A DNA stretch of 64,000 nt from assembly GCF_003334255.1 (NCBI RefSeq), contig NZ_QOWU01000022.1; one strand, 5' to 3'. Shown one piece after another: positions 1,913 to 53,854 of the stretch. This stretch comes from Escherichia coli. Lineage in GTDB: Bacteria; Pseudomonadota; Gammaproteobacteria; Enterobacterales; Enterobacteriaceae. Each line of letters begins with the position of its first letter. Position 1 is the stretch's first letter. A program made the position numbers and the translations under genes. The notes beneath the pieces are model-generated. The model was not told the DNA's origin. It was given only the letters and a program-made list of their open reading frames with translations, and searched no databases.

Positions 1913-2950
1913 TTAATCATCACCCGCCACGCGGATCACCACTTTGCCGAAGTTTTTACCCTTCAGCAGGCCGATAAACGTCTGTGGCGCATTCTCTAAA
2001 CCGTCAGTAATTTCTTCGCGGTAGTGGATTTTATCCTCTTTCACCCATTGCCCCATCTCCCTCTGAAACTCATGGATGCGGTGACCATAATCCTGAGCGA
2101 TAATAAAACCTTGCAAGCGAATACGTTTTTTCAGCACTGTAGCCATCAACAGAGGTAAACGATCCGGACCGGGTGGTAGCTCTGTAGCGTTATAGCTGCT
2201 CACTAATCCGCAGACGGGAATGCGCGCAGATGTATTAAGTAATGGTAGCACTGCATCAAATACCTTACCGCCCACGTTTTCATAATAGATATCAATACCT
2301 TTTGGGCACGCTTTCGCCAGTTGTTCGGCAAAATCATCCGCGTGGTGATCAAGACAAACATCGAAGCCCAGCACCTCGGTAGCATGGCGGCATTTTTCCG
2401 CGCCACCGGCAACCCCCACCACCCTGCAACCTTTAAGTTTGCCGATTTGCCCCACCGTCGCCCCCACTGGTCCTGTCGCCGCAGCTACCACCAGCGTTTC
2501 GCCCTCTTTAGGCTGACCGATATCCAGTAGGCCCATATAAGCGGTAAAGCCTGGCATCCCCAGCACACCCAGCGACCACGATGGATTTTGCGGATGATCG
2601 CCAAGTTTCACCAGATCATCACCACTGGATATGTCATAGTCCTGCCATCCACTGTAGCCCAGCACCCAGTCGCCAGGCTGATAATCAGGATGATTCGACT
2701 CCACAACACGGCTCACCGTGCCGCCGACCATCACGCCGCCAATATCAACAGGCGGTGAATAAGATGGCTCATCGCTCATACGTCCACGCATATACGGGTC
2801 CAAGGACAAATAAACTGTGCGCAGTAACACCTGTCCTTCACCCGGTGTGGCGACATCATCTTCTTCAAGACGGAAATTCTCCGGAACCGGTGCGCCATGT
2901 GGACGCGAGGCCAGAACCCAACGTCGATTACGCTGCTTTTGTTGCCCCAT
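1913..2950 (-). CDS. curA: NADPH-dependent curcumin/dihydrocurcumin reductase (medium-chain dehydrogenase)
   Basis: ORF 1913..3055; start trimmed to MGQQKQRNRRWVLASRPHG; Rossmann motif GATGPVG visible. Confidence 0.85.
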   Translation of the reverse strand: MGQQKQRNRRWVLASRPHGAPVPENFRLEEDDVATPGEGQVLLRTVYLSLDPYMRGRMSDEPSYSPPVDIGGVMVGGTVSRVVESNHPDYQPGDWVLGYSGWQDYDISSGDDLVKLGDHPQNPSWSLGVLGMPGFTAYMGLLDIGQPKEGETLVVAAATGPVGATVGQIGKLKGCRVVGVAGGAEKCRHATEVLGFDVCLDHHADDFAEQLAKACPKGIDIYYENVGGKVFDAVLPLLNTSARIPVCGLVSSYNATELPPGPDRLPLLMATVLKKRIRLQGFIIAQDYGHRIHEFQREMGQWVKEDKIHYREEITDGLENAPQTFIGLLKGKNFGKVVIRVAGDD

Positions 2951-3129
2951 AATGCTCTCCTGTGCTTTTGGCATGAATCCATCAATAGTAGCAGGCTCAC
3001 GGGATTGGTTTTGTTTGCAGCCGTCACATCCCCTCTGAACACGCAATAATTTCATCGAGGAATCCGTTGCTTCGGGCTGTTATCGATAGTATTGATAACA
3101 TCATCATCATTATTTTATCGAGGCCAGAC

Positions 3130-3648
3130 ATGTCCATCCGTTTTGCCCGCAAAGCCGATTGTGCTGCTATTGCGGAAATTTATAACCACGCCGTGTTGTA
3201 TACGGCGGCTATCTGGAATGACCAAACGGTGGATGCAGATAACCGCATTGCCTGGTTTGAAGCGCGGACTTTAGCTGGTTATCCGGTGCTGGTGAGCGAA
3301 GAAGATGGCGTAGTGACGGGATATGCCTCGTTTGGCGACTGGCGTAGTTTCGATGGTTTTCGCCATACCGTGGAACATTCGGTTTATGTCCATCCCGATC
3401 ATCAGGGCAAAGGTCTGGGGCGTAAATTGTTAAGCCGATTGATTGATGAAGCGCGGGATTGCGGGAAGCATGTCATGGTCGCCGGGATCGAATCGCAAAA
3501 TCAGGCCTCGCTGCATCTGCACCAGTCGCTGGGATTTGTCGTCACCGCACAAATGCCGCAGGTGGGCACTAAATTTGGGCGCTGGCTGGATCTGACATTT
3601 ATGCAGTTGCAACTCGACGAACGCACTGAACCGGACGCGATTGGATGA
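3130..3648 (+). CDS. mnaT: GNAT N-acetyltransferase (L-amino acid / methionine sulfoximine acetyltransferase)
   Basis: ORF 3067..3648; start trimmed to MSIRFARKADCAAIAEIYNHAV. Confidence 0.85.
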   Translation: MSIRFARKADCAAIAEIYNHAVLYTAAIWNDQTVDADNRIAWFEARTLAGYPVLVSEEDGVVTGYASFGDWRSFDGFRHTVEHSVYVHPDHQGKGLGRKLLSRLIDEARDCGKHVMVAGIESQNQASLHLHQSLGFVVTAQMPQVGTKFGRWLDLTFMQLQLDERTEPDAIG

Positions 3649-4094
3649 ATCAGTCGCTCACCCTTGCCTTTTTGATTGCCGCCGGAATTGGTCTGGTAGT
3701 CCAGAACACGCTGATGGTGCGCATCACCCAGACCTCCTCTACCATTCTCATCGCCATGTTGCTGAACTCACTGGTGGGGATTGTGCTCTTTGTTTCTATT
3801 TTATGGTTTAAACAAGGTATGGCGGGGTTTGGCGAACTGGTGTCCAGCGTGCGCTGGTGGACACTTATACCTGGCTTGCTGGGATCGTTTTTTGTCTTCG
3901 CCAGTATCAGCGGATATCAGAATGTGGGAGCGGCGACAACTATTGCAGTACTGGTCGCCAGCCAGCTGATTGGCGGTCTGGTTCTGGATATCTTCCGCAG
4001 TCATGGCGTACCACTACGGGCGTTGTTCGGCCCAATTTGTGGCGCAATTTTACTTGTGGTTGGCGCCTGGTTGGTGGCCAGACGCTCATTTTAA
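3645..4094 (+). CDS. ydcZ: Inner membrane protein YdcZ (DMT-like)
   Basis: 149-aa hydrophobic ORF overlapping mnaT stop by 4 nt. Confidence 0.8.
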   Translation: MNQSLTLAFLIAAGIGLVVQNTLMVRITQTSSTILIAMLLNSLVGIVLFVSILWFKQGMAGFGELVSSVRWWTLIPGLLGSFFVFASISGYQNVGAATTIAVLVASQLIGGLVLDIFRSHGVPLRALFGPICGAILLVVGAWLVARRSF

Positions 4095-8145: not shown

Positions 8146-9159
8146 TCACCTCTCCTCAACCAGCGGCACCATCACATCACGCGACCAGGAAACCATCACC
8201 TGTTGTCCGGGCGTGAGCGTGGCAGGCAGTTCTTCGCCTGTCATATTGGCCTGACTCACAAGCAGTTTTTCACCGCCGTTCAATTTCAGTTCAAAACGAG
8301 TTGCCGCGCCCTGATATTGCACCGCCTGGATCGTGCCATTGGCCTGCAGTTCACCAGGGGTGTTGAGGCGGATATGTTCCGGTCGCAGGGCGAAGCTTCC
8401 CGTCATGCCACAAAGTTTCTCTGCCATCAGTCCATCAAAAACATTCGATGTACCAACGAACCCGGCAACAAACGGCGTGCGCGGGCGCATATAGAGATCG
8501 CGCGGGGAATCGACCTGCTCAATGCGTCCATTATTGAAAACCGCCACACGATCGGACATCGATAACGCTTCGCCCTGATCGTGGGTAACGAAGATAAAAG
8601 TGATACCGAGAGACTGTTGCAGTTTTTTCAGTTCCAGCTGCATCTGCTCACGCAATTTGAGATCCAGTGCGCCGAGCGGTTCATCCAACAGCAATACGCG
8701 CGGTTCATTCACCAATGCTCTGGCGATAGCAACCCGCTGGCGCTGACCACCAGAAAGTTGTGACGGTTTACGTTGATGTACAAACCCCAACGCCACTTTC
8801 TCCAGCGCCTCTTGCGCCATTGCGTGCCGCTGCTTTTTATTCACGCCTTTGACCATCAGCCCATAGGCGACATTGTCAAGAATCGACATATGCGGAAATA
8901 GCGCGTAGTCCTGAAAGACAGTATTCACGTCCCGCTCCCACGGTGGCAGATTGCTGGCGGGTTTACCAAAGATAGAGATAGCCCCGCCGGAAAGCTGTTC
9001 GAAGCCAGCAATCAGGCGCAGGCAGGTGGTTTTGCCGGAGCCGGACGGCCCCAGCATAGAGAAGAACTCACCATCTTTTATCGCAATACTGACGCCATCT
9101 ACTGCGCGCACGTCACCGTACAACCGCGAGACGTTGTCAAACTCCACTGCGTACGTCAT
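8146..9159 (-). CDS. ydcT: ABC transporter ATP-binding protein
   Basis: Walker A GPSGSGKTT, ABC signature LSGGQRQR, Walker B LLLDEP. Confidence 0.9.
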   Translation of the reverse strand: MTYAVEFDNVSRLYGDVRAVDGVSIAIKDGEFFSMLGPSGSGKTTCLRLIAGFEQLSGGAISIFGKPASNLPPWERDVNTVFQDYALFPHMSILDNVAYGLMVKGVNKKQRHAMAQEALEKVALGFVHQRKPSQLSGGQRQRVAIARALVNEPRVLLLDEPLGALDLKLREQMQLELKKLQQSLGITFIFVTHDQGEALSMSDRVAVFNNGRIEQVDSPRDLYMRPRTPFVAGFVGTSNVFDGLMAEKLCGMTGSFALRPEHIRLNTPGELQANGTIQAVQYQGAATRFELKLNGGEKLLVSQANMTGEELPATLTPGQQVMVSWSRDVMVPLVEER

Positions 9160-9176
9160 AAAGCACCCCAGCGAAG

Positions 9177-10322
9177 TTAGCGACCGCCCATAATGGCAAT
9201 GTAATCCTGCGTCCAGCGACTGTAGGGAACAAACTTGCCCCCTTCTGCTATAGGCGTTTTCCAGAAGGCGATTTTGTCGAAATAGTTAAAACCGTTTGTT
9301 TCACAACCTTTTTCGCCTAATAACGGACTGGCTTTACACCCTTCCGGCACTACCGGTAACGAGCCAAACCAGGCCGCCACATCGCCCTGTACTTTTGGCG
9401 TTAATGACCAGTTCATCCATTTGTAGGCGCAAGCCGGATGTTTCGCTTCGCTATGCAGCATGGTGGTATCAGCCCAACCGGTAACACCCTCCTTCGGGAA
9501 AACGGTAGCAACAGGCTGGCCTTCGGCTTTCAGGGCGTTGGCCTGATAGGGCCATGCACTGGAAGCAACCACACCCTCGTTTTTGAAATCGCTCATTTGC
9601 ACGGTAGTGTCATGCCAGTAGCGATGGATCAAACTATGTTGATCCCGCAGCACTTTCAGCACCGCCTGGTACTGTTCTTCGGTGAGTTGATACGGATCGC
9701 TGATGCCCAACTGCGGCTGAGTGGCTTTAACGAACAACGCAGCGTCCGCAATATAGATCGGGCCATCATAAGCCTGAACGCGGCCTTTATTGCTCTTGCC
9801 GTCCGGCAGATTTTGCTCAACAAAAACCACTTGCCAGCTATCCGGCGGCGTCGGGAAGGTTTTAGTGTTGTACATCAGCAGATTCGGCCCCCACTGGTAT
9901 GGTGTGCCGTAAACTTTGCCGCCAACATTGAACCAGTCGCCTTTAACCACGCGGGGATCGAGCGTTTTCCAGTTGGGGATCAATGCGGTATTAATCGGCT
10001 GCACGCGTTTACCCATAATCAGGCGCAGCGAGGCATCGCCGGATGCAGTAACCAGATCGTAACCCCCTTTGGTCATCAGACTGACCATTTCATCGGAAGT
10101 CGCGGCGGTTTTCACATTCACCGCGCAGCCTGTCTCTTTTTCGAATTGCGTTACCCAGTCGTATTGTTTATCAGTTTGTCCGCGTTCGATATATCCCGGC
10201 CAGGCGATAATATCCAGTCGCCCTTCCGGTTTATCTAAATTGGTAGGCGGTTCGGCGGCGTGAGCGGTCATTATTGTCATGCTGAGCGCACACAGGCTGC
10301 TGCGGGCAAATGTCTTGCTCAT
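9177..10322 (-). CDS. ydcS: Periplasmic substrate-binding protein (polyamine-type)
   Basis: 381-aa ORF with N-terminal signal peptide; first gene of the transporter cluster. Confidence 0.85.
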   Translation of the reverse strand: MSKTFARSSLCALSMTIMTAHAAEPPTNLDKPEGRLDIIAWPGYIERGQTDKQYDWVTQFEKETGCAVNVKTAATSDEMVSLMTKGGYDLVTASGDASLRLIMGKRVQPINTALIPNWKTLDPRVVKGDWFNVGGKVYGTPYQWGPNLLMYNTKTFPTPPDSWQVVFVEQNLPDGKSNKGRVQAYDGPIYIADAALFVKATQPQLGISDPYQLTEEQYQAVLKVLRDQHSLIHRYWHDTTVQMSDFKNEGVVASSAWPYQANALKAEGQPVATVFPKEGVTGWADTTMLHSEAKHPACAYKWMNWSLTPKVQGDVAAWFGSLPVVPEGCKASPLLGEKGCETNGFNYFDKIAFWKTPIAEGGKFVPYSRWTQDYIAIMGGR

Positions 10323-41156: not shown

Positions 41157-43469
41157 TCAATACAACTCATCAAGTTTTCTCATCGCTTGTTCCCGTATTG
41201 CGCGCGTCTTACCGTTAAGCGCCAGCTGGCGGACTAAATCCAGTTCAGGGTTAACAAGCTCTAACGCCAGCAAAGGATCACGTTTCAGCCTCGCCTTTAA
41301 TACATCAACTGGAAAACGGGGATTATTCATCGCCACAATCCACCACTCGGGATCAATTTCTGCCGCCAGTACTGCAGGCGGTGTGTGGCGGTTGTTAAGT
41401 GCGCCGAACTTGAAAAATGTGAGATTACTTTTCGCCAGTGTACTCCACCATATACGATCCGGTTGTTTTGCCAGTACATCCAGTTGTGCTAACGCATCGG
41501 GGTCGAGTGCATAATAAACACGTAATGCTTCATCAACCTGCGCACGGGAGCTATTTTCCTGCCTCAGAAAAAACTTCGCCCAAATATCATTGCGTGGCGT
41601 GTTTTGCTGTAATTCCTTGAGAACAACAGCGGGTAAATTATCCCAACTAACTAATGCACTCTCTAAAAAGTCCCAGTCTTCCAAACGTATCAGGGCGGTG
41701 GCATTTAATAGCATCTGGTCATCAACTTCGCCGTGGCTAATCAGCTCAGACAAAATCATATCAGCGCTGGTTTCATATGCTTCTGAATCTGCTTTCGGAT
41801 TATTTTTCCGATGCGATAAAGCACGTTGCCAAATTTTTTGTTTCATCGACGTGCTCAGATACTGATTTTTCGCCAGATTACTCCACCCCTCAGGATCGTT
41901 GAAACGTGTCAATAACCGTTGTAAAGCAGCGTCAGAGTGAATTACCTGCATATCCCGACAGCAAAAGTAGGCAGGGGATTTTTTCTCCATCCTTTTAACA
42001 AAATTAAACTGTAAGTTATCTGGCAACGCTAAAAATAACGCACCTATTAGATCATCGTCATTCTCGAATTTTTGGTATATATATACTGCTATTTTGTCAC
42101 TCTCTTGTGGCGTCATCCGCAACAATTGACCATGGTGTTTCATCTCTGCCAGCTTTAACGCTAAGCTTGTGACAACATCGTTTGATGAATCGTTCGCCAA
42201 CTGCATTGCCTGATTGTAGGTGAGTTGTCCTCCAGCACCGACCTGACGAATAGAGGAATCATCACTGCGGATATAACCATCAATAATGGATTCGGGCAAT
42301 AACCACGCATCTTTATAAAGCTCCTGAATGATCATATCCCAATCTCTTTTCGCCAGAGTCATGACGATATCCAGAGGGAGATTTTCACGTAGCGCAAGAT
42401 TCAACGGACCGACACCATCAGGTAGATGACTCATTCGCGTCATTATTTCGACAGAGAGCGGTTCACGGTCAAGCAACCCCAGAACAACAGGCTGGTAACC
42501 CAATTGCTGATCGGTCAACTCCAGAATCTCATTGTCAGGCATATATCTCGCCATACTTTCAATCGTTTGTTCATCATTGCTATTAATAAGTTGTTTGCGT
42601 AGGTTAGCTGAAATTCCTTTAAGCCTTGGGAGAGTTCGCATTATGGCAAGATCAAATGTCGCAATGTCTCGTCCTTCAAATGCAGCAACTTTGCCTTCAT
42701 CCAGCATTTGCAATTCCTGCACTAACTCAGGAGAAGGCTTAGGGCGAAACAGCGCTTCTTTTTTCATCTGATTACAGACATTCCCTGCTATGCGAATATT
42801 GCTTCGCTTAAAAATTTCTTTCAGAGCATCTTCATCATTTATTAGGCCCCAATAATATGCATCAGGATTTATTATCGTCAGCGCTTTTTTGACATTTTCA
42901 GTGTCATTTTTGTCTCCCGCACGGACCATGAATTCACTATTTATCGAAGACACAACAACAGGTGCAATTATGTCATTGATAAATATCCCACGCGCATTAA
43001 TACTCCCCTTAATCGTAGACGGATTATCGTAATATGAGTCGATAAATACCAGTCCACTTGCATTTATCGAACCGGTAATTAACAGTGGTGAATCTGTAAT
43101 TATATTTGTTGCCGTCACGTTACCGAGAATAACCCATGGATTAGAAAGAGAGAAAGTGGAAATATTTCCTTTGACTGTCAAATTGCCAAGAACAATCAAT
43201 TTTTGATTACTCTCTATATTACCTTCTACCACTAAATCGCCACGATGCACTTTCCAGTCCGATGCAGATAAACCGAAGGGGACAAGATTCACGCTACTGT
43301 TGATAGCTTGTTCAACTTGCTGTTTGTCTTCAGCGGTAGCCGCAGAAAAAAATGGTTCAATATCAACTGCATTTGCAACACATCGAAGTTCCGCCTGAAC
43401 TGGAAGGCTCAGCATAAACAGGGGAAGTAAACCTATCCAGCCGCAAATCCTGGGCTTAAACATATGCAC
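41157..43469 (-). CDS. ydbD: Uncharacterized secreted protein YdbD
   Basis: 770-aa ORF with signal peptide. Confidence 0.8.
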   Translation of the reverse strand: MHMFKPRICGWIGLLPLFMLSLPVQAELRCVANAVDIEPFFSAATAEDKQQVEQAINSSVNLVPFGLSASDWKVHRGDLVVEGNIESNQKLIVLGNLTVKGNISTFSLSNPWVILGNVTATNIITDSPLLITGSINASGLVFIDSYYDNPSTIKGSINARGIFINDIIAPVVVSSINSEFMVRAGDKNDTENVKKALTIINPDAYYWGLINDEDALKEIFKRSNIRIAGNVCNQMKKEALFRPKPSPELVQELQMLDEGKVAAFEGRDIATFDLAIMRTLPRLKGISANLRKQLINSNDEQTIESMARYMPDNEILELTDQQLGYQPVVLGLLDREPLSVEIMTRMSHLPDGVGPLNLALRENLPLDIVMTLAKRDWDMIIQELYKDAWLLPESIIDGYIRSDDSSIRQVGAGGQLTYNQAMQLANDSSNDVVTSLALKLAEMKHHGQLLRMTPQESDKIAVYIYQKFENDDDLIGALFLALPDNLQFNFVKRMEKKSPAYFCCRDMQVIHSDAALQRLLTRFNDPEGWSNLAKNQYLSTSMKQKIWQRALSHRKNNPKADSEAYETSADMILSELISHGEVDDQMLLNATALIRLEDWDFLESALVSWDNLPAVVLKELQQNTPRNDIWAKFFLRQENSSRAQVDEALRVYYALDPDALAQLDVLAKQPDRIWWSTLAKSNLTFFKFGALNNRHTPPAVLAAEIDPEWWIVAMNNPRFPVDVLKARLKRDPLLALELVNPELDLVRQLALNGKTRAIREQAMRKLDELY

Positions 43470-44594: not shown

Positions 44595-47500
44595 TTAGAA
44601 CGTTTTCTTAAAGTTCAGCATCACGCCTTTATCGCTGATACCGTCCTCTTTCCAGTGGTACGCGTCCAGATTCAGCGAACTTTCTTTGCTGCTGTACTTC
44701 ACGCCGACGCTTGCCAGGCTATTGATGCCGCCGCCCTTCTGATCGTCATCGACGTTAAAGTGCTGGCTGCCTGCGCCTGCCAGGCTTGCCGTGCGCTGGC
44801 TCTTCGCGTAGCTCAGGTTCGGCCCGCCTTCCAGCGTGGCGTTCGCACTCCAGCCGTCTTTTCCTGCATAATCCAGCTTCAGCCCGACGATGCTGTCCAC
44901 CGCCGTTTCGCTGCCGCTGTTCATGCTCAGGTTAAAGTCTCCGGCATTGCGCTCCTGATAGCCACCTTCCAGTGTGTGACGCAGTTTTACACCCGCATAT
45001 GGCGTAACCTTCAGTCCTTCGCTCGGTTCGAAAGTCTTCGCTCCTTCGCTACGGAACTCCAGGTACTGCTGCTTCACGTCGGTATCAGCCGTTTTGTTCG
45101 TGTTGCTAAATGCAATCGAGCGGCTGCTGTCAAGGTTGTGAACGTCATAACGCAATGCGTTATTCCAGTTCATGCCGTTGTCGAAGGACATCTGATGTTT
45201 CAGGCCAAAGAACTGGCTGTAGCCACCGGTGACGCCATTATCACCCGCTTTCTGCGCACCGTCGCCATCCAGACGCGCGATACCGTACTCCAGACTCATG
45301 GTCTGGCTTTCGCTCAGGTCGATGGTTTTACGCAATGCCAGCATGTCGTATTCGGTATTATTACCTAACTCGGCACGCGGATCGCCTTTCGCGACAACGT
45401 TGAACGCCAGACCGTTGCCCACTTTCGGCGCGGCATCCGCCAGCATACTAAAGCGGTTGCTTAACACGCGCGCTTCGCGGAATACCGTGGTTGCCTGGCT
45501 ACCGCTGACCTGTTTCAGAGCGCTGTTCAGTTCAGCAGTCGTGCCGACGTTCAGGCTGGTAAACAGTTCGTTGTTGGTGTAACTCGCATCCAGTGCTTTC
45601 GCGATGTCATTCACCGAAGCATCAGTCGCCACATCGGTATAAGCATTTTTGCTCATGGTGATGTCAACGTTACCGCTGGCATCGGTGCTGCCTTTAGCAG
45701 TCCATACCACGGACGTTGAGGTGATGGCATCCGCATCGGTCAGGTTGCTGCCCTCCACCACGTTATCAAAACTAACGGTGGTGTCTGCGGTACCGGCGGT
45801 AAACCCGGTGTTGATCCCCACGCCGTTCATGCTGGCATTGTTGACCTTGAGCTTACCGGCGCTGCCATCGGCACTCGTTCCCACCACGTAACCGTTGAGA
45901 TTATTCATGCCGTCGTCACTGCTCACGGACGATGACGAGCTACCGCCGCTATAAGGCGTAATCGTCGGCTCATCCGGCGCGGTGAAGTCCACATAGTGCG
46001 CTTCTGTGCCGTCGCCGCCTTCGCCGTTGCCTTCTGCCGAGATACCACTTTGTTTGAAGATACCGGAACCCGTCACGCTGTCGTCGATATACACGATACC
46101 GTTGTTAACGATATGTCCAGCGCTGCCTAACTGGCTGAATGCAAAAGAATCACTGGCGTAAATATTGATGGTGCCATTATTTTCAATGACCGCATCCGCC
46201 TTCGCGTTGCTTTCGAGTTGCATCCCTACCATGCCAGTCTCAGAGGTGCCTTCTGTGCCGACGTTAATGATATTGTTGTTGACCATTTTCGCGCTGCCAT
46301 GCGCCGACATCGCCACATTACCAGTGTTGTCAATATTAATAGTACCGTCGTTCACCACCAGCGTGTTAGCGTTCACGTTCAAGGCAGTCTTGATTTGACC
46401 GTTGATTACGCCCGTCTCACCGTTATAAAGGGTGTGTGGATTGCCAGCGGCCATAATATTAGCGTCACTGTTAACCGTGCCCCAGTTATTAAATGAACCC
46501 GCCCACAATTGACCGTCATCAATTGTTGCTACACCGCCTTGCAGGTTGTTGAATACACCCTTTTTATCCACGGTGACATGATTGACCGTTCCGGCGTTAT
46601 TGAACGTTGATGCAGCAGTAAAAAAGACCTTATCTACCGTTCCACCTGCCTGGTTGTTCATGACGGCAGACACCGATGAGCCTTTCCAGTTGCTCACCGT
46701 TCCGGTGTTATAAACAGCGCTGGCCCACTGTTCGATACTACTAATAGTGCCAGCATTGTTGATGACCGAACCCGCAACTGTCGTAACTACCTGGCCTGTA
46801 ACTGTGCCTTCATTATTAAAGACGCCGCCATCAACAGAAACGGATTGAGTTATCCCCTGGTTGATATATTCACCGTCAATGGCGATAACCACCTTGTTGA
46901 TATTACCCGTGATTTCGTTGGTCAGATTGCCATTATGAGCAACCGTAATGGCTCCGCCCGTCACCGTTCCTGCGTTGGTGATATAAATATCGCTCTCTGC
47001 CAGGGGGTTGGTTACCCCTCCGCTTGTGGGTAAATCCAGCGTTTCGCCTTCAGCGGTAATAACGTTGCCATTATCCCATCCCCGGCTGACGGCACTGTCG
47101 GTCGGGTTATAGCTCGCACTGTCCTGACAAATACCGAACGTGCAGATAGTGCCGTAGTTAACAATAACGCCGGAACCGTCATTGTAAAATGCCTGACCAA
47201 TTTCGGCATTAATATTAATAACGCCAGTCTGATCATTAATTGCGGTTCCGCCATTGTAAACCGCCATACCGACGAGTTTATTCGCGCCAATCGTGTCGTC
47301 ATAGTTATCATTTTTTTCCAGGTTGATAGTCCCCTGGTTAATGACCGTATTGCCATGACCATTAGCGAACATTCCCGCGCCGGCATTATAGATAGTAATG
47401 ACACCGCCTTCTTTATTAATTGCGGTTGCGTTAACTCTGGGGCCGTTAAAATCATCTGTGCCTACCCACATGCCAGCGGCATAATCTCCGGCTCTATTTC

Positions 47501-50300
47501 CATGTATATCGCTGCGTAATTGCGTTGTATCATTAGCATCAACCCATAACGCATCGATAGAGATATTGCCTGCATTCTCAGCCGTCGAGTTGTCTATTGC
47601 CGTCATGCCAATGTTCCCTCGACCATACATATCAATCACGCCACTCTCACCATTGAGTGCATAACTGTTATGGTAGGCTTCGAGAGCAATCATACTCTCC
47701 GTTTGATTATTCGGAATATCACTGCCAGTAGCACCCACGGAGTTTCGCATATTCACCACGCTATACTGCTCCATAACTTTTGCTGTGATGAATCCATTAT
47801 TTGTAACCGTAGCGCCTCCTTGCGCCATTAGCGCTACCCCACCCGGTTCCGGGACTGGATTTGTCGGTGTCGAATAATCATACTGAAGTAATGCGATGCT
47901 GCCGCTGTTAACCGCCGAACTGTTTTCATCGTTGACATTAATAAATTTAATATTCGCTACATCGACATCCCCTTCATTGATGACCTGGGAACCGGAAGAC
48001 GCATTTATTATCGCAGGAGTCGCATCAAAATAGTGTTCGAATATATTGACATCCTTCGTTGAAAAAGAGGCATCATCGCCTATCTTCAACATTGCACCAT
48101 CATTCAACTGGATAATACTGGAGTAACCTACCGGGAAATCACCGCCTATTACCGAGTCACCATTCAGGTATACGGATGAGTTGCCATCAACCTTAATAAG
48201 AGGAGTGGAGCCGCTTCCCTTACGTGCGGAGGCAATATCCTCTCCGTTGGTTAAGGTATTTGCCTCTCCCCTGAATTGCACGCCACCATTAAGTGCTACC
48301 GTATTACCATCACCCGTGATCACCAGTCCGGAGATGTTTTCCTGGCTACCGTCAAAACGTGCATAGGTACGATTCGTGGTTTCGCTATCCACGACCATCG
48401 TTAACTGACCATCCAGTGTAATATCATTATTATCACCGCTGACATTAACGCCAACGGATGGGTCGTAAAAATATTCTGCCGCATTATCAGCCAACTGGTT
48501 TTTATCGACCAGTATATTGCCGGCGATATCGATGGTATTCCCGTTCCCGGCGACATTGACCCCTGTCGCATCCTGTCCGGTGACGTTCAGCTCATAGGTG
48601 GCCAGCGTCATAGTGTTATTATTGCCAACCACATCCAGACCTGTGGAGAAATCACCCACATACATACCACCCGCAAGTGAGATATCGCCAGCGTCGCCAA
48701 TAACCTGAACTCCCGTCCCTGCATTGCTGGCAGAAATATCACCCACGTTCATAAACGTGGCGTTATCCCCCGCAATCTTCACACCTGTGGCATTCTCTTC
48801 CGCATTGCCATTGCTGGCGGAAATATCACCCATATTGATAAATGTGGTGTCATTACCCTGCAACTCAATGCCAATGGATTTCTCATCCACGACGGTTATA
48901 TTGCCTTTATTGCTGATAATGGTGCCATCTCCATCAACAATAATTCCACGTGCGCCACCGCTTACATAAAGATCGCCTGATTGTTTAACCAGTGCATCGT
49001 TACCGGTAATTTTCGACCCCGTCGAATGTTCTCCGTCGACGGTCATGACACCTTTATTACTTACTACCGCGTTGTCGCCATTAATCTCGCTGCCGGTCCC
49101 ACCATTGGTAAACGTCGAGTCACCCGCGGTATTCAATGTCGCGCGATCGCCATTGATAATAACCGCCGTCCCGCCATCAACTTCCGTTTCACCATTATTA
49201 TTGATGGTGATATCGTCGCCGGTCAGGATACCGACCACTGAGCCTTCGCCAATTGCGGTGGTTTTACCGTCGTTATTAAGGGTTATATCGTGACCGTCAA
49301 CAACCATCACCGTGCCACCATTCAGCGCGGTATTTCCACCCTTATCGGTGATGGTGGCATCGTTAACCTGGAAATGGTCACCTGTAGTTCCATCAGCAAC
49401 CGTACCCGCCTCTTTGACAATATGGATTTTGCCATCGTCATCATAACGCCAGGTGATCCCGCCCGCCGTATTGACGCCGTCAAAGCTGACAGTGTTGGCC
49501 GCCTCGTCAACGGACCAGGTTTTTACAATCGTCGTTTTGCCATTTGGCCCGGTAAGTGTGTAACTGCCGTCTTCATTTTTAGCGTAGGTGAAGGTGGTAT
49601 TACGAATTTCTACGGTCTTCGCATCCTGATCCCAGGTGACATTATTTTTATAAACGACAGGATCGTGTTTGACTGGGGTGTCATCACCATCGTCGTCCGG
49701 GGTATCGTCACCATCATCGTCCGGTGGTACCGGGGTGTCACCGCCATCGTCCGGTGGTACCGGGGTGTCGCCGCCATCGTCCGGTGGGACCGGGGTGTCG
49801 CCGCCATCGTCCGGTGGTACCGGGGTGTCACCGCCATCGTCCGGTGGCACCGGGGTGTCGCCGCCATCGTCCGGTGGGACTGGTGTGTCGCCACCATCGT
49901 CCGGTGGGACTGGTGTGTCGTCGCCATCATCCGGCGGTACCGGGGTGTCGCCGCCATCGTCCGGCGGTACTGGTGTGTTGCCGCCATCGTCCGGCACCGG
50001 AGATGGATCGTCGTGATGGTGATTATTATCATCGTGGAGTGCATACACCGCTACGCCTGTTGCCACCGCAGCCAGGCCCACTGCAGCCCAGGGTAACAAC
50101 TCACTATCTTCAGCTGATTTACACTCTGCTGGCAGCTTTTCTAACTGTTCTTTACTCAGTGATTTAATATTGACCGGGCAGCTAATCTTGCTGGATTTAC
50201 GAGACTCATCCGATGTTTCCGCTATCGACGTATCTGCTGCCCAGGTCTGGCTGCTTAACGCCATTGCAACACAGACACTAAGCATTTTTTTCCTTTGCAT
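44595..50300 (-). CDS. ydbA: Giant autotransporter adhesin-like protein YdbA, uninterrupted
   Basis: Single 1901-aa ORF: signal peptide, Pro/Asp-rich decapeptide repeats, long Gly/Asn/Thr-rich passenger, C-terminal beta-barrel ending ...LNFKKTF. Confidence 0.85.
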   Translation of the reverse strand: MQRKKMLSVCVAMALSSQTWAADTSIAETSDESRKSSKISCPVNIKSLSKEQLEKLPAECKSAEDSELLPWAAVGLAAVATGVAVYALHDDNNHHHDDPSPVPDDGGNTPVPPDDGGDTPVPPDDGDDTPVPPDDGGDTPVPPDDGGDTPVPPDDGGDTPVPPDDGGDTPVPPDDGGDTPVPPDDGGDTPVPPDDDGDDTPDDDGDDTPVKHDPVVYKNNVTWDQDAKTVEIRNTTFTYAKNEDGSYTLTGPNGKTTIVKTWSVDEAANTVSFDGVNTAGGITWRYDDDGKIHIVKEAGTVADGTTGDHFQVNDATITDKGGNTALNGGTVMVVDGHDITLNNDGKTTAIGEGSVVGILTGDDITINNNGETEVDGGTAVIINGDRATLNTAGDSTFTNGGTGSEINGDNAVVSNKGVMTVDGEHSTGSKITGNDALVKQSGDLYVSGGARGIIVDGDGTIISNKGNITVVDEKSIGIELQGNDTTFINMGDISASNGNAEENATGVKIAGDNATFMNVGDISASNAGTGVQVIGDAGDISLAGGMYVGDFSTGLDVVGNNNTMTLATYELNVTGQDATGVNVAGNGNTIDIAGNILVDKNQLADNAAEYFYDPSVGVNVSGDNNDITLDGQLTMVVDSETTNRTYARFDGSQENISGLVITGDGNTVALNGGVQFRGEANTLTNGEDIASARKGSGSTPLIKVDGNSSVYLNGDSVIGGDFPVGYSSIIQLNDGAMLKIGDDASFSTKDVNIFEHYFDATPAIINASSGSQVINEGDVDVANIKFINVNDENSSAVNSGSIALLQYDYSTPTNPVPEPGGVALMAQGGATVTNNGFITAKVMEQYSVVNMRNSVGATGSDIPNNQTESMIALEAYHNSYALNGESGVIDMYGRGNIGMTAIDNSTAENAGNISIDALWVDANDTTQLRSDIHGNRAGDYAAGMWVGTDDFNGPRVNATAINKEGGVITIYNAGAGMFANGHGNTVINQGTINLEKNDNYDDTIGANKLVGMAVYNGGTAINDQTGVININAEIGQAFYNDGSGVIVNYGTICTFGICQDSASYNPTDSAVSRGWDNGNVITAEGETLDLPTSGGVTNPLAESDIYITNAGTVTGGAITVAHNGNLTNEITGNINKVVIAIDGEYINQGITQSVSVDGGVFNNEGTVTGQVVTTVAGSVINNAGTISSIEQWASAVYNTGTVSNWKGSSVSAVMNNQAGGTVDKVFFTAASTFNNAGTVNHVTVDKKGVFNNLQGGVATIDDGQLWAGSFNNWGTVNSDANIMAAGNPHTLYNGETGVINGQIKTALNVNANTLVVNDGTINIDNTGNVAMSAHGSAKMVNNNIINVGTEGTSETGMVGMQLESNAKADAVIENNGTINIYASDSFAFSQLGSAGHIVNNGIVYIDDSVTGSGIFKQSGISAEGNGEGGDGTEAHYVDFTAPDEPTITPYSGGSSSSSVSSDDGMNNLNGYVVGTSADGSAGKLKVNNASMNGVGINTGFTAGTADTTVSFDNVVEGSNLTDADAITSTSVVWTAKGSTDASGNVDITMSKNAYTDVATDASVNDIAKALDASYTNNELFTSLNVGTTAELNSALKQVSGSQATTVFREARVLSNRFSMLADAAPKVGNGLAFNVVAKGDPRAELGNNTEYDMLALRKTIDLSESQTMSLEYGIARLDGDGAQKAGDNGVTGGYSQFFGLKHQMSFDNGMNWNNALRYDVHNLDSSRSIAFSNTNKTADTDVKQQYLEFRSEGAKTFEPSEGLKVTPYAGVKLRHTLEGGYQERNAGDFNLSMNSGSETAVDSIVGLKLDYAGKDGWSANATLEGGPNLSYAKSQRTASLAGAGSQHFNVDDDQKGGGINSLASVGVKYSSKESSLNLDAYHWKEDGISDKGVMLNFKKTF
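49670..50000. repeat. Tandem 30-nt coding repeat array (about 10 copies) inside ydbA
   Basis: Repeated ggtgtcaccgccatcgtccggtggtaccgg units encoding (T)PVPPDDGGD. Confidence 0.85.
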
Positions 50301-50701
50301 ATGAAATTCCTCATAAATAGATGATTACGCAGCCCAGATAAACTGCACAGGGTTAAATAGTTACAAACATTCGAAATCTGGATATTGTTTTTAACAGAAT
50401 AAATATATTGATTTAGCGAATATATTTATTCATTAAGTCAATATATTTATTCTTTAATTTATATTTTTAACGCATTTATTTCAACATAAAATATGGCGTA
50501 GTTGAGATTAAATCCGATAATACCTATGAATTAAATAATACAAGTAATTCATGTGGTAAATAAATCATCATGTTAATGAAGCATTTCTTATCGGCATCTA
50601 TATGAAATTAAATAAAAAATAATTCTCAATAGTATTACAGTTATTATTGAATGTTTCAGGAGGTACAACCAGACAGATTTTTCTCGACGAATACCGAATT
50701 A

Positions 50702-51025
50702 TTATTTTTGCAACCACATCCCGTTTATCCCGCGAATGTATTCTCCCGGCTTAGCTTTTGCTACCAGTTTCTGCCCAGCCAATTTTTCCACTTCTGCAAC
50801 CGGCAAATTATTTTTTATGGCGAGTTTTTGATAGCTCTTTTTACGCGATTCATTAATCGTTTTGACTAACATCTGTGTTTCGGTATCCGCCTTTAATGCA
50901 ACCAGATAACCATTATACGTTTCGCCAACACGCCCCTGAGTTCGAGCGTCATCCAGCGTCAGCGCCATCGCACTGGCGTTAAATAATGCATTAATGACAA
51001 AACACAGCATTAAATTTCTCTTCAT
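50702..51025 (-). CDS. ydbL: DUF1318-family periplasmic protein YdbL
   Basis: ORF 50702..51106 trimmed to MKRNLMLCFVINALFNASAMA. Confidence 0.75.
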   Translation of the reverse strand: MKRNLMLCFVINALFNASAMALTLDDARTQGRVGETYNGYLVALKADTETQMLVKTINESRKKSYQKLAIKNNLPVAEVEKLAGQKLVAKAKPGEYIRGINGMWLQK

Positions 51026-51032
51026 ACTCGCC

Positions 51033-51218
51033 TCAGAAAAGATCGCTACGGGTCTCAAGCAGCTCTTCGACATCTTTGTCTGCCTTGATGATGATCTCAT
51101 GCTCAATTTTAACGTTCATATTGATAGTGATCGGTTCCTTAGGTGCAGCGACTTCAATGCGAGGCGTACAGCCAACCAGCATAAAAGATGACGTCAACGC
51201 AGCCAGTAAAATTTTCAT
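51033..51218 (-). CDS. ynbE: Small lipoprotein YnbE
   Basis: 61-aa ORF with lipobox MLVGCTP. Confidence 0.8.
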   Translation of the reverse strand: MKILLAALTSSFMLVGCTPRIEVAAPKEPITINMNVKIEHEIIIKADKDVEELLETRSDLF

Positions 51219-53854
51219 TGTTTTTCCTCACACTCTTTTCCTTGCGGACAGTCATTTCCCGGCAGACGTGCGTTCTGCTCCAACCATGCCTGGAGATTAT
51301 CGCCAAAGCGTAAACTGCGCCACAGCGTAAAAATATTCTCTTCATGATGGTAATTAAGGTTTACCGTACCGCTTTTACCATCAACGCGACTGGTACCTGT
51401 AATGTTGGCCTGCATGGTTAATAAACCGAGATTATCTAAGTTAATTTTTGTCGATGACCGGCTAATTTCCATATAGCGCAACCAGTTAATTGCTGAACCC
51501 GCAGTCATATTGTCTTTCACCACCGCATCTGCGGTGTCTTTATCCAGCCGCAAGGTCATTGGCCCGCTATTTGCCAGCCAACCATCTTTCACTATCCATT
51601 TTTCGTTGTTTAGCCATAACGGCAATGCACCACTAAATGCCCCGGACATGGCGAATTGTTTCGGATTGACGGCGCTAACCAGTTCGCTGGATGAGAGATT
51701 ATTCAGCCGCAACAGCGCCGGGTCATGTTGCGGCATGCGTAATTGTTTCATCAGCACGTTACCGCCTAAAACATCGACGCTAACATCAGTCAACAGCAAG
51801 GGTTCTTCTTCAGTCCACGGATAACGCCCTTGCAAATCAGCCGTAATATTTTTCGCTGTCACCAGATTAATCACTTCGGCAATTCGCAACATAACGGGGC
51901 CGCGAGTCCCCAGATGCCAGGCTCCATCGGCAAAACGGAAAGGCAGGACAAAATCGACACCGTTAACCTGATTATCTGGCATCCAGGCACTACCGCCTTT
52001 CAACACGCCGTGCCCTCCCGCGCGGAATCCTTGTTCAGGCGCAGCAGAAAATGCAACCTGAGCATACAGTTCACCATCGCGTAAGTTCATCTTCCAGTCG
52101 GGTGGCACCAGCGGCTGGAATACAGTCAGTGATTGTTTAGGCCACCAGGCGTTACCGCGCAGACGAATACCGTCCCAGCGACCATTTACCCGAACCGGGC
52201 CAATCTCACCAGCATGTAAATCGCCTTTAAAGAGGAAATACGTCGGATCGCGCCCATCGACGCTAAATTTTAAGGTTGATGGCGGTAACACACTGCCGCC
52301 AGTGAACAGCGTTTGCCCGGCGTCCAGTGACAGCGCGCCGCTGAAGGAGGGATGCTGTGCGTCACGTACCCAGACGACGGGCTTGTCGAGAATTAATCGC
52401 GGCTTTTCTACCGTCATCGTACCGTATTGTAACTGGTCGAAACCGGTGGAGAGATCGGTCAGCGTAATCGTGCTGTCATGCCACTCACCCTTTCCTGCGA
52501 CATCCCAGGTGGCATTCATCGGTGTAAAACTGCCTTTTCCCCAGTAGCGCCACTGCCAGCGGCCAGCGTCAGGGAGAAAATCATTCGCCAGCCCATCCAT
52601 ATGCAGCACGAAATCGCCCAGTTCATTTTCATGCGCCTGCAAAATGGCCTGCAAACGTCCGTCAACACCACGTTGGGTGACTTTTACACCCGCTAAAGGC
52701 CAGCGGATTTCATCGATGTCCAGCGAATCGATGACTCTTCCCTTTGAACGAAGTAACGCGCCTGGCTCAAAGGTCAGCGTTGGGTCAGACAGACTTCCAC
52801 TTAGCTGCGCGGGTAAGCGGGCATATAAAATGAGGTCCGCCTGTTTCGCTTCACCGGTCAGCTGTAAAGGCAGCTGGCTGTTATCCATGCTTAATTTTCC
52901 TGGGCCAAAATTTAGCACCGCGTTGCCCTTACCCGCTTGCCCCTGGGTCAGCACACTCAGTCGTCCGCTGACCAGAGCGTTCTCAAGCCCTGCCTGCCAG
53001 TTGTCGACTTTGACACCCAGTCGGCCACTCAAAGGAAAACCTGCATACGGCCAGCTCCAGCGACCATCGCTTATGGTCAATTGTTGACGAGTAATTTGCC
53101 ACGGCAAATCGAGCAACGGATCGCCGTTATCCCGTGCCAGCACGATCAATTGCCCGCTATTTTCCTGCCAGTCCAGCTCTGCATCCACCAGTGACGGTTC
53201 CTGCGGCAAGTTTAACGTCGCAGTAGCATGCCCACTTACAGGAAGTCCATCCGGCACGAGCGGCATAGTAAATTCCCCCACCAGTTTAACCGGCGGCTGA
53301 TTTTCAAACGCGACGACATCCAGTTCGCTGACTGTAAGTTGTTGCTCTTTCAGCTGGCCTTGAAATTTAACTTTTTCGCCCTGATAACGCAGTTGCTGGA
53401 TATCAGAGGTTAATGCGAGAGAGAGTTTTCCCTGCCATTCCTGCCAGGGAGAAAAAATCAGTTTATCGATATTGATCCAGGTGTTAGGCAGCATGGACTG
53501 CCACTGCGCGAGGGTTTTTGGAGCAGCTGGCGATTGCTCCGTCTGCGGCAATTTCGCCAGACAAGCAGAATCAAGTTCTACCGTGCCGACGTTCAATAAC
53601 CAGCGGCTCGGATGTGAAAGGCTGGCGTTGGTGATATGCGCAAGCTGACAATCTCCCACCAGATAACGAAGATCGGGAATGATTAAACCTTTACGCGTAA
53701 TGCGTGGGCTTTCATCTAATGCAATACGTGTCCCGAGCGGTAGCCAGATGCCCGCCAGCGTGGGAACCCACAGCCCGAGCGTCATCAGCAGCGTCAACGG
53801 CACAAGAATAATCAGTAATAACAGCGCGAGAACGGCTTTATATTTACCCAGCAT
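51215..53854 (-). CDS. ydbH: Large AsmA-like membrane-anchored protein YdbH
   Basis: 879-aa ORF with N-terminal TM anchor; forms ydbH-ynbE-ydbL cluster. Confidence 0.85.
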   Translation of the reverse strand: MLGKYKAVLALLLLIILVPLTLLMTLGLWVPTLAGIWLPLGTRIALDESPRITRKGLIIPDLRYLVGDCQLAHITNASLSHPSRWLLNVGTVELDSACLAKLPQTEQSPAAPKTLAQWQSMLPNTWINIDKLIFSPWQEWQGKLSLALTSDIQQLRYQGEKVKFQGQLKEQQLTVSELDVVAFENQPPVKLVGEFTMPLVPDGLPVSGHATATLNLPQEPSLVDAELDWQENSGQLIVLARDNGDPLLDLPWQITRQQLTISDGRWSWPYAGFPLSGRLGVKVDNWQAGLENALVSGRLSVLTQGQAGKGNAVLNFGPGKLSMDNSQLPLQLTGEAKQADLILYARLPAQLSGSLSDPTLTFEPGALLRSKGRVIDSLDIDEIRWPLAGVKVTQRGVDGRLQAILQAHENELGDFVLHMDGLANDFLPDAGRWQWRYWGKGSFTPMNATWDVAGKGEWHDSTITLTDLSTGFDQLQYGTMTVEKPRLILDKPVVWVRDAQHPSFSGALSLDAGQTLFTGGSVLPPSTLKFSVDGRDPTYFLFKGDLHAGEIGPVRVNGRWDGIRLRGNAWWPKQSLTVFQPLVPPDWKMNLRDGELYAQVAFSAAPEQGFRAGGHGVLKGGSAWMPDNQVNGVDFVLPFRFADGAWHLGTRGPVMLRIAEVINLVTAKNITADLQGRYPWTEEEPLLLTDVSVDVLGGNVLMKQLRMPQHDPALLRLNNLSSSELVSAVNPKQFAMSGAFSGALPLWLNNEKWIVKDGWLANSGPMTLRLDKDTADAVVKDNMTAGSAINWLRYMEISRSSTKINLDNLGLLTMQANITGTSRVDGKSGTVNLNYHHEENIFTLWRSLRFGDNLQAWLEQNARLPGNDCPQGKECEEKQ

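Follow-up and report, generated by a model that had tools for sequence, protein, structure and literature searches.

An alternative, deeply divergent haplotype without the fea/tynA/paa cluster at the variable ydbL–ydbA locus of Escherichia coli

The analyzed stretch of E. coli DNA (64,000 nucleotides, referred to as the window) carries at the locus under study the same flanking genes as K-12, i.e. ydbH-ynbE-ydbL on the one side and ydbA-pdxI-ydbD on the other side. The genes, the spacer between ydbA and ydbL and the larger sequence features are arranged as follows (positions of the window):

44595–50300, minus strand: ydbA, intact, encoding a BigA/YdbA-family autotransporter adhesin of 1901 aa (open reading frame list and NCBIfam)
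49715–49994, minus strand: 30-bp tandem repeat in the 5' part of ydbA, 9.3 copies, about 70% G+C (TRF, composition and translation)
46294–51032: deeply divergent haplotype block that spans the spacer together with the complete ydbL and some 4 kb at the 5' side of ydbA (blastn against K-12)
50301–50701: AT-rich spacer between ydbA and ydbL, 401 bp, 25.7% G+C, putative 5' regulatory region of ydbA
50702–51025, minus strand: ydbL, divergent allele, 107 aa, 62% protein identity to K-12 YdbL
51033–51218, minus strand: ynbE, 98.9% DNA identity to K-12; its stop codon forms the left edge of the divergent block
51215–53854, minus strand: ydbH, NCBIfam YdbH equivalog (1402 bits), ordinary E. coli allele

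As an earlier note on this DNA had stated, ydbL adjoins ydbA without the fea/tynA/paa genes: the two coding regions are separated by the 401-bp gap at 50301–50701, and no gene of the cluster is present there. Neither at this site nor among the large open reading frames of the 64-kb window were fea, tynA or paa genes found, and the spacer itself contains no notable open reading frame and resembles no part of the K-12 island. The RefSeq gene names of the near-identical locus of strain G6/7 agree with the assignments made for the window, and, as regards ydbL, the Pfam domain PF07027/DUF1318 is present in all relatives. The ydbA product matched the NCBIfam model auto_BigA (NF033178) with 1081.8 bits over residues 304–1901 (model cutoff 3400) and is, judged from this family-level match, a BigA/YdbA-family protein and not BigA proper. 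It resembles the BigA adhesin of Salmonella and the YdbA adhesin of E. coli in fitting the BigA profile nearly over its full length, with the autotransporter barrel at the end, but differs in a score far under the BigA cutoff and in a passenger domain that is not alignable to the K-12 DNA. In translation, the N-terminus MQRKKMLSVCVAMALSSQTWA is signal-peptide-like; the signal peptide and a hydrophobic segment are followed by the tandem repeat at 49715–49994, which encodes (PPDDGGDTPV)n. The BLAST alignments to eight near-identical genomes break at this 30-bp repeat, and in G6/7 and cM8a ydbA is annotated as a split pseudogene; the repeat may be variable in length or prone to assembly errors. 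In K-12, ydbA is a pseudogene split by IS2 and IS30, while the window gene is uninterrupted over its 1901 codons.

The earlier note had stated that in K-12 about 20 kb with the fea/tynA/paa genes lie between ydbL and ydbA, and had named a different K-12 gene order as the point on which its reading would fail. The K-12 MG1655 reference shows the order as stated (ydbH ynbE ydbL, followed by feaR feaB tynA paaZ paaA-K paaX paaY ynbG, followed by ydbA), with 19,185 bp from the ydbL stop to the ydbA start. The further reading of the spacer as the empty phenylacetate-island site did not hold: no similarity was detectable to the ydbL-feaR or to the paaY-ydbA intergenic DNA of K-12, and with sensitive blastn (word size 7, no low-complexity filter) as well as local and global alignment only the ydbL and ydbA coding ends aligned to K-12. 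The island boundaries, for which the note had suggested an alignment with K-12, were defined by the spacer of RM14723 and UPEC129, in which ydbL also lies directly beside ydbA (374–375 bp). The latter spacer matches the left K-12 flank with 95.7% identity over 163 bp, to 64 bp past the ydbL stop, and the right K-12 flank with 84.7% identity over 417 bp, from 14 bp past the paaY stop. According to these alignments, the true K-12 empty site is the RM14723/UPEC129 spacer and not that of the window. As this spacer corresponds to the joined K-12 flanks, the K-12 island therefore extends over NC_000913 1446271–1465074 (18,804 bp, feaR through paaY, with ynbG outside). At its ends, no target-site duplication was present (junctions ...GAAACA/AGGTG... 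and ...AAATTA/TTTTG...), and within it no integrase is annotated, such as an integrase-mediated mobile island would carry. The window junction shares with that of RM14723 and UPEC129 the adjacency of ydbL and ydbA, an AT-rich spacer of similar length and the absence of fea/paa genes; in contrast to the joined K-12 flanks of the latter, the window spacer is without detectable similarity to it (global-alignment z = 0.8 against the true empty site, and 0.8–1.7 against the different spacer types, relative to shuffled controls).

The comparison with K-12 placed the boundaries of the divergent block directly. On its left side, the ydbH 3' end and ynbE are 97–100% identical to K-12 (ydbH 3' end 97%, ynbE 98.9%), and identity falls to approximately 65–73% within a few bases of the ynbE stop (about position 51032); a drop of this sharpness is a signature of recombination rather than of gradual divergence. 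Within the block, the window ydbL is 71–73% identical to K-12 ydbL in DNA, the ydbA 5' part is at most 70% identical to its K-12 counterpart, and no K-12 alignment was obtained between 50697 and 47656; on the right side, alignment at 89.5% identity resumes at 46293. At the protein level, the window-type YdbL is 61–63% identical to the alleles of K-12, O157, E. albertii and E. whittamii and 61–66% identical to the YdbL proteins of Citrobacter, Enterobacter and Salmonella. The YdbL alleles form three deep groups: the K-12 type, the type common to O157, Escherichia sp. E1V33, E. whittamii and E. albertii, and the window type with its long branch. In a search of 5.8 billion protein clusters, the close relatives of the window YdbL (92–93%) were E. 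coli proteins only; the next relative, at 76%, is a chimera with its first 36 residues of the window type and the rest of the K-12 type. The chimeric ydbL is located at 39–365 of contig k141_182094 (ENA ERZ27281845), where K-12-type feaR-feaB-tynA come next; this contig and K-12 share 98.7% DNA identity, and the crossover lies at the conserved QGRVGET motif. This chimera is a natural recombinant and, as such, direct evidence of haplotype exchange by homologous recombination. For the divergent block itself, neither the scan of GTDB species representatives nor the search of the 5.8 billion protein clusters revealed a donor lineage; the block may thus be either an import or an old allele of long persistence.

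Another recombined block is present at the O157:H7-type junction. With Escherichia sp. E1V33, O157 shares 99% identity in the YdbL protein and 97.8% in the spacer DNA, while its neighboring ldhA is 99.5% K-12-like; the O157 block looks like an introgression from another Escherichia lineage. It is similar to the window block in the adjacency of ydbL and ydbA, in its AT-rich spacer (412 bp) and in a divergent ydbL. The two differ in extent and in the search for an origin: the O157 block reaches left into ynbE and ydbH and has a plausible source lineage, whereas the window block begins exactly behind the ynbE gene and the searches revealed no source for it. In the extracted locus of the O157:H7 strain 4276, positions 8688–9716 match positions 11197–12481 of the extracted E1V33 locus and range from the ydbH 3' end through ynbE, ydbL and the spacer to the 5' end of ydbA. 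The three spacer types of direct junctions (window, RM14723/UPEC129 and O157:H7) are all AT-rich (25–31% G+C) and show no detectable similarity to each other (mutual global-alignment z −0.3 to 1.7).

Among the 80 loci recovered in the scan of GTDB species representatives, ydbL was followed by feaR-feaB-(tynA)-(paaZ-paaA) in Enterobacter, Lelliottia, Trabulsiella, Pseudocitrobacter, Yokenella, Cedecea, Pluralibacter and some Citrobacter. The occurrence of this arrangement (ydbL, then feaR-feaB-tynA-paaZ-paaA) in many other genera favors an old presence of the cluster. As a counterpoint, the recovered representatives of Escherichia other than E. coli are all without it: E. albertii (ydbL-pdxI), E. 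whittamii (ydbA remnant) and Escherichia sp. E1V33 (ydbL-ydbA); the cluster is also missing in Salmonella arizonae, diarizonae and Kluyvera. A deviating combination was observed in E. coli SCPM-O-B-8794 (extracted locus 2465–3767), where an E. whittamii/O157-like ydbL (87–88% protein identity; 73% to K-12) is followed by a K-12-like feaR that begins 80 bp downstream. In consequence, the island is not tied to a single ydbL allele.

In the 5,426 complete E. coli genomes searched, the K-12-type ydbL-feaR junction was present in 4,163 genomes, the RM14723/UPEC129-type direct junction in up to 1,036, the O157:H7-type direct junction with its 412-bp spacer in 374, and the window-type junction in 115 (8 at ≥99% and 107 at 90–95% identity); the frequencies are approximate, as the junction counts overlap by about 260 genomes in which partial-deletion remnants meet two queries. 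The window-type haplotype thus accounts for about 2% of the complete genomes; the Symbioflor strains G6/7 (NZ_CP060061), G1/2 (NZ_CP060083) and G8 belong to the eight near-identical ones. The paaABC genes were found in 3,147 genomes (58%; median one copy per genome, maximum two) and are missing in 42%. Many complete genomes possess the ydbL-feaR junction and no paaABC (4,163 versus 3,147), and remnants of the forms ydbL-feaR'-paaX and ydbL-feaR'-paaY'-ydbA suggest that internal deletions have affected the island repeatedly. Goldstone et al. (2016, PMC4951805) describe the feaRB-tynA-paaZABCDEFGHIJKXY locus, with ydbH-ynbE-ydbL on one side and ydbA towards the other, as a heterogeneous region; the strains of phylogroups B2 and E examined by Leimbach et al. 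(2017, PMC5422975) lack paa, and in E. coli B paa was lost through an IS3-mediated event (PMC3032704). The published region of heterogeneity (PMC4951805, PMC5422975) and the window locus agree in chromosomal site and in the strain-variable nature of the cluster; in contrast, the portions of the two papers devoted to the locus treat ydbL as a core flank and describe neither unalignable spacer types nor a ydbL allele of 62% identity. The absence of fea/tynA/paa is, hence, an ordinary and already published strain difference that is located here inside a rare, very divergent haplotype.

Within the spacer, the following elements were recorded (the sub-haplotypes are those of the window-type junction):

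50307–50312, minus strand: Shine-Dalgarno-like GAGGAA, 6 nt upstream of the ydbA ATG, unchanged in 5 sub-haplotypes
50396–50453: 58-bp imperfect palindrome, an array with 21-bp period (repeat search; TRF, period 21, 2.9 copies)
50397–50409, minus strand (inverted): ydbA-proximal copy of the 13-mer AATATATTTATTC, unchanged in all 5 sub-haplotypes compared
50419–50431, plus strand: middle copy of the 13-mer, 0–1 substitutions in the other sub-haplotypes
50440–50452, plus strand: ydbA-distal copy of the 13-mer, 2–4 clustered substitutions in the other 4 sub-haplotypes
50456–50484, minus strand: sigma-70-like site TTGAAA, 17-nt spacer, TAAATT (consensus scan)

The spacer at 50301–50701 is the only 400-bp stretch with less than 32% G+C in the 64-kb window (window median 50%). 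Its earlier description as a very AT-rich stretch of about 400 nt that would serve as the ydbA upstream region was supported by the G+C content of 25.7%, the sigma-70-like site and the Shine-Dalgarno-like sequence; the label of an empty site attached to it had to be dropped. The −35 element (50484–50479) and the −10 element (50461–50456) form the only match on the ydbA strand, and both hexamers are unchanged in the 5 sub-haplotypes. Structured RNA with an Rfam match at E ≤ 1 was not present in the spacer, and 3' of ydbL no terminator was detected by the terminator scan or in the fold of the ydbL-proximal 146 nt (z = +0.85). Since GATC is absent from 50301–50701, a Dam-dependent switch of the Ag43 type is unlikely.

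Table 1 of Panyukov and Ozoline (2013, PMC3661553) includes the intergenic DNA between paaY and ydbA of K-12 as a "promoter island" bound by H-NS. The window spacer is similar to this region in its position directly upstream of ydbA and in its extreme AT content (25% G+C in K-12), and at 25.7% G+C, the window minimum, it shows the extreme base composition of such islands. It differs in having no sequence similarity to the K-12 region. A simple sigma-70 scan, which is another algorithm than that of the published "promoter island" definition, showed no excess of promoter-like sites (1 site versus 4.4 ± 2.4 in shuffles). The H-NS high-affinity motif TCGATAAATT was not matched in the spacer with up to one mismatch. 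In the whole window, 16 one-mismatch matches to this motif were counted versus 5.8 expected by chance; three of them lie within 133 bp at 42938–43070, inside the ydbD open reading frame (41157–43469). By position and base composition, targeting of the window spacer by H-NS is plausible in analogy to its K-12 counterpart; it is on AT content and this analogy that the regulatory part of the explanation given below is based.

The direct repeat reported in the spacer by the earlier note is real; its copies are exact rather than near-perfect, start at 50419 and 50440 rather than at about 50418 and 50448, and are accompanied by a third, inverted copy. For this 13-mer, 0.09 matches would be expected by chance across the whole window, and a k-mer of at least 13 nt occurred three times in only 2 of 3000 dinucleotide-preserving shuffles of the spacer, so that the repeat is beyond chance even for such AT-rich DNA. 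The copies of AATATATTTATTC are spaced 21–22 bp apart, i.e. by about two helical turns, and the outer 16-nt arms of the palindrome (50396–50411 and 50438–50453) are perfectly complementary; as RNA, the palindrome is predicted to form a hairpin of −21.7 kcal/mol (z −9.4). The sigma-70-like site is positioned directly upstream, and a transcript started from it would have the palindrome at its 5' end. Around the proximal copy, the ydbA-proximal 150 bp or so are nearly unchanged across the 5 sub-haplotypes. Only 8 genomes carry the triple in exact form, which is absent from the rest of E. coli, and no 13-mer or equivalent repeat is present upstream of ydbA in the other spacer types or in the 80 species loci. 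An assignment of the palindrome to dispersed repeats or MITEs was considered and rejected, as it occupies one place per genome and is found only in the 115 carriers among the 5,426 complete E. coli genomes. To our knowledge, the 13-mer does not fit the consensus of ArgR, Fur, RcsAB, PaaX, IHF or Fis, nor do we know of another regulator motif that it resembles; the divergent block contains no extra regulator gene. Template switching within quasi-palindromes is a mutational mechanism known in E. coli. The clustered differences of the distal copy fit local homogenization and faster decay in the sister lineages equally well, and the perfection of the array would be most simply explained by local homogenization (e.g. 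by template switching) or by a slower decay than in the sister sub-lineages. What is unusual at the locus is limited to the divergence of the block and the palindromic 13-mer array, and a function of either would be conjectural.

With a probability of roughly three in four, the window represents an alternative haplotype of a known variable locus, in which the absence of the island would be a property of the block and not a scar or a target site, and in which the spacer would be the regulatory region of ydbA. It would be one of several haplotypes in which ydbH-ynbE-ydbL is directly followed by an intact BigA/YdbA-type autotransporter gene. The segment from about 51032 to about 46290 would then be an allele block that is as far from the K-12 block as those of different enterobacterial genera, embedded in ordinary E. 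coli flanks; it was presumably exchanged or retained by homologous recombination, the absence of the island coming with the block. The ydbA promoter is most likely located in the spacer, and binding and silencing of the spacer by H-NS are probable, as for its non-homologous, equally AT-rich counterpart in K-12; the triple 13-mer would be a local palindromic structure with 21-bp phasing that is specific to this haplotype.

The adjacency of ydbL and ydbA could alternatively reflect an unoccupied or precisely vacated site of the fea/tynA/paa island, composed of the joined K-12 intergenic flanks. The same two genes flank the island in K-12, and the 401 bp of the spacer are close to the 374–375 bp of the true empty site; such an origin is nonetheless highly improbable, because neither K-12 intergenic region has detectable similarity to the spacer, the z value against the true empty-site spacer is as low as 0.8, ydbL (about 62% in protein) and the ydbA 5' part (at most 70% in DNA) are themselves remote from K-12, and the RM14723/UPEC129 spacer is the one that fits joined K-12 flanks. 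A related scenario assumes a local deletion of the island in an ancestor with K-12-type flanks, followed by rapid divergence in place, e.g. through diversifying selection on the adhesin. Deletions at the locus are indeed documented by the ydbL-feaR'-paaX and ydbL-feaR'-paaY'-ydbA remnants and by the IS3-mediated paa loss in E. coli B (PMC3032704), and the ydbL-feaR adjacency is old and present in many genera; however, identity to K-12 is about 99% up to the ynbE stop and about 70% only a few bases further on, YdbL has diverged as between genera although it is not surface-exposed, and no fea/paa remnants were found in the spacer, so that this course of events has little probability. Loss of about 19 kb as an artefact of assembly or scaffolding is practically negligible: nothing specific speaks for it except that the nearby 30-bp tandem repeats disturb alignments and annotations, whereas the same 801-bp junction is found end-to-end in 115 independently finished genomes and other direct ydbL-ydbA junction types occur in more than 1,000 further genomes.

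With respect to the 13-mer array, the three phased copies might control ydbA in this haplotype, either as the operator of a DNA-binding regulator or as a structured leader at the 5' end. This would agree with three exact copies at 21–22 bp distance (found in 2 of 3000 shuffles), their location closely behind the single sigma-70-like site of the ydbA strand, the strong predicted hairpin (−21.7 kcal/mol, z −9.4) and the nearly unchanged state of the proximal copy and the ydbA-proximal 150 bp in the 5 sub-haplotypes. Yet, 107 of the 115 carriers belong to sub-haplotypes with 2–4 differences in the distal copy and 0–1 in the middle copy; the element is present once per genome and nowhere else in E. 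coli, the other types of ydbA upstream region are without equivalent, the block includes no extra regulator gene, and no matching regulator motif is known to us. A control function of the array is, on balance, unlikely. A bolder proposal regards ydbL, the spacer and the 5' part of ydbA as an anciently diverged allelic cassette that is kept by selection on the surface adhesin, with a regulatory logic of its own in each allele and the 13-mer array switching ydbA. It draws on at least three mutually unalignable promoter regions and on a YdbL that is 62% identical between alleles, and has a small chance of being correct.

E. coli lineages are known to differ metabolically in whether they possess the phenylethylamine/phenylacetate pathway, and the window, read as an alternative haplotype, adds one more strain without the cluster at this site. 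This carries little weight alone; the boundaries of the K-12 island can now be stated to one or two bases (NC_000913 1446271–1465074). The "empty site" at this locus exists in at least three unrelated sequence forms, and gene-presence tables thus hide recombined haplotype blocks. Furthermore, ydbL, usually treated as a core gene, has alleles within E. coli that are as far apart as those of different genera. YdbL has recently been annotated as a probable chaperone partner of YnbE/YdbH, and the divergence of its alleles could matter for studies of YdbH-YnbE-YdbL function across strains.
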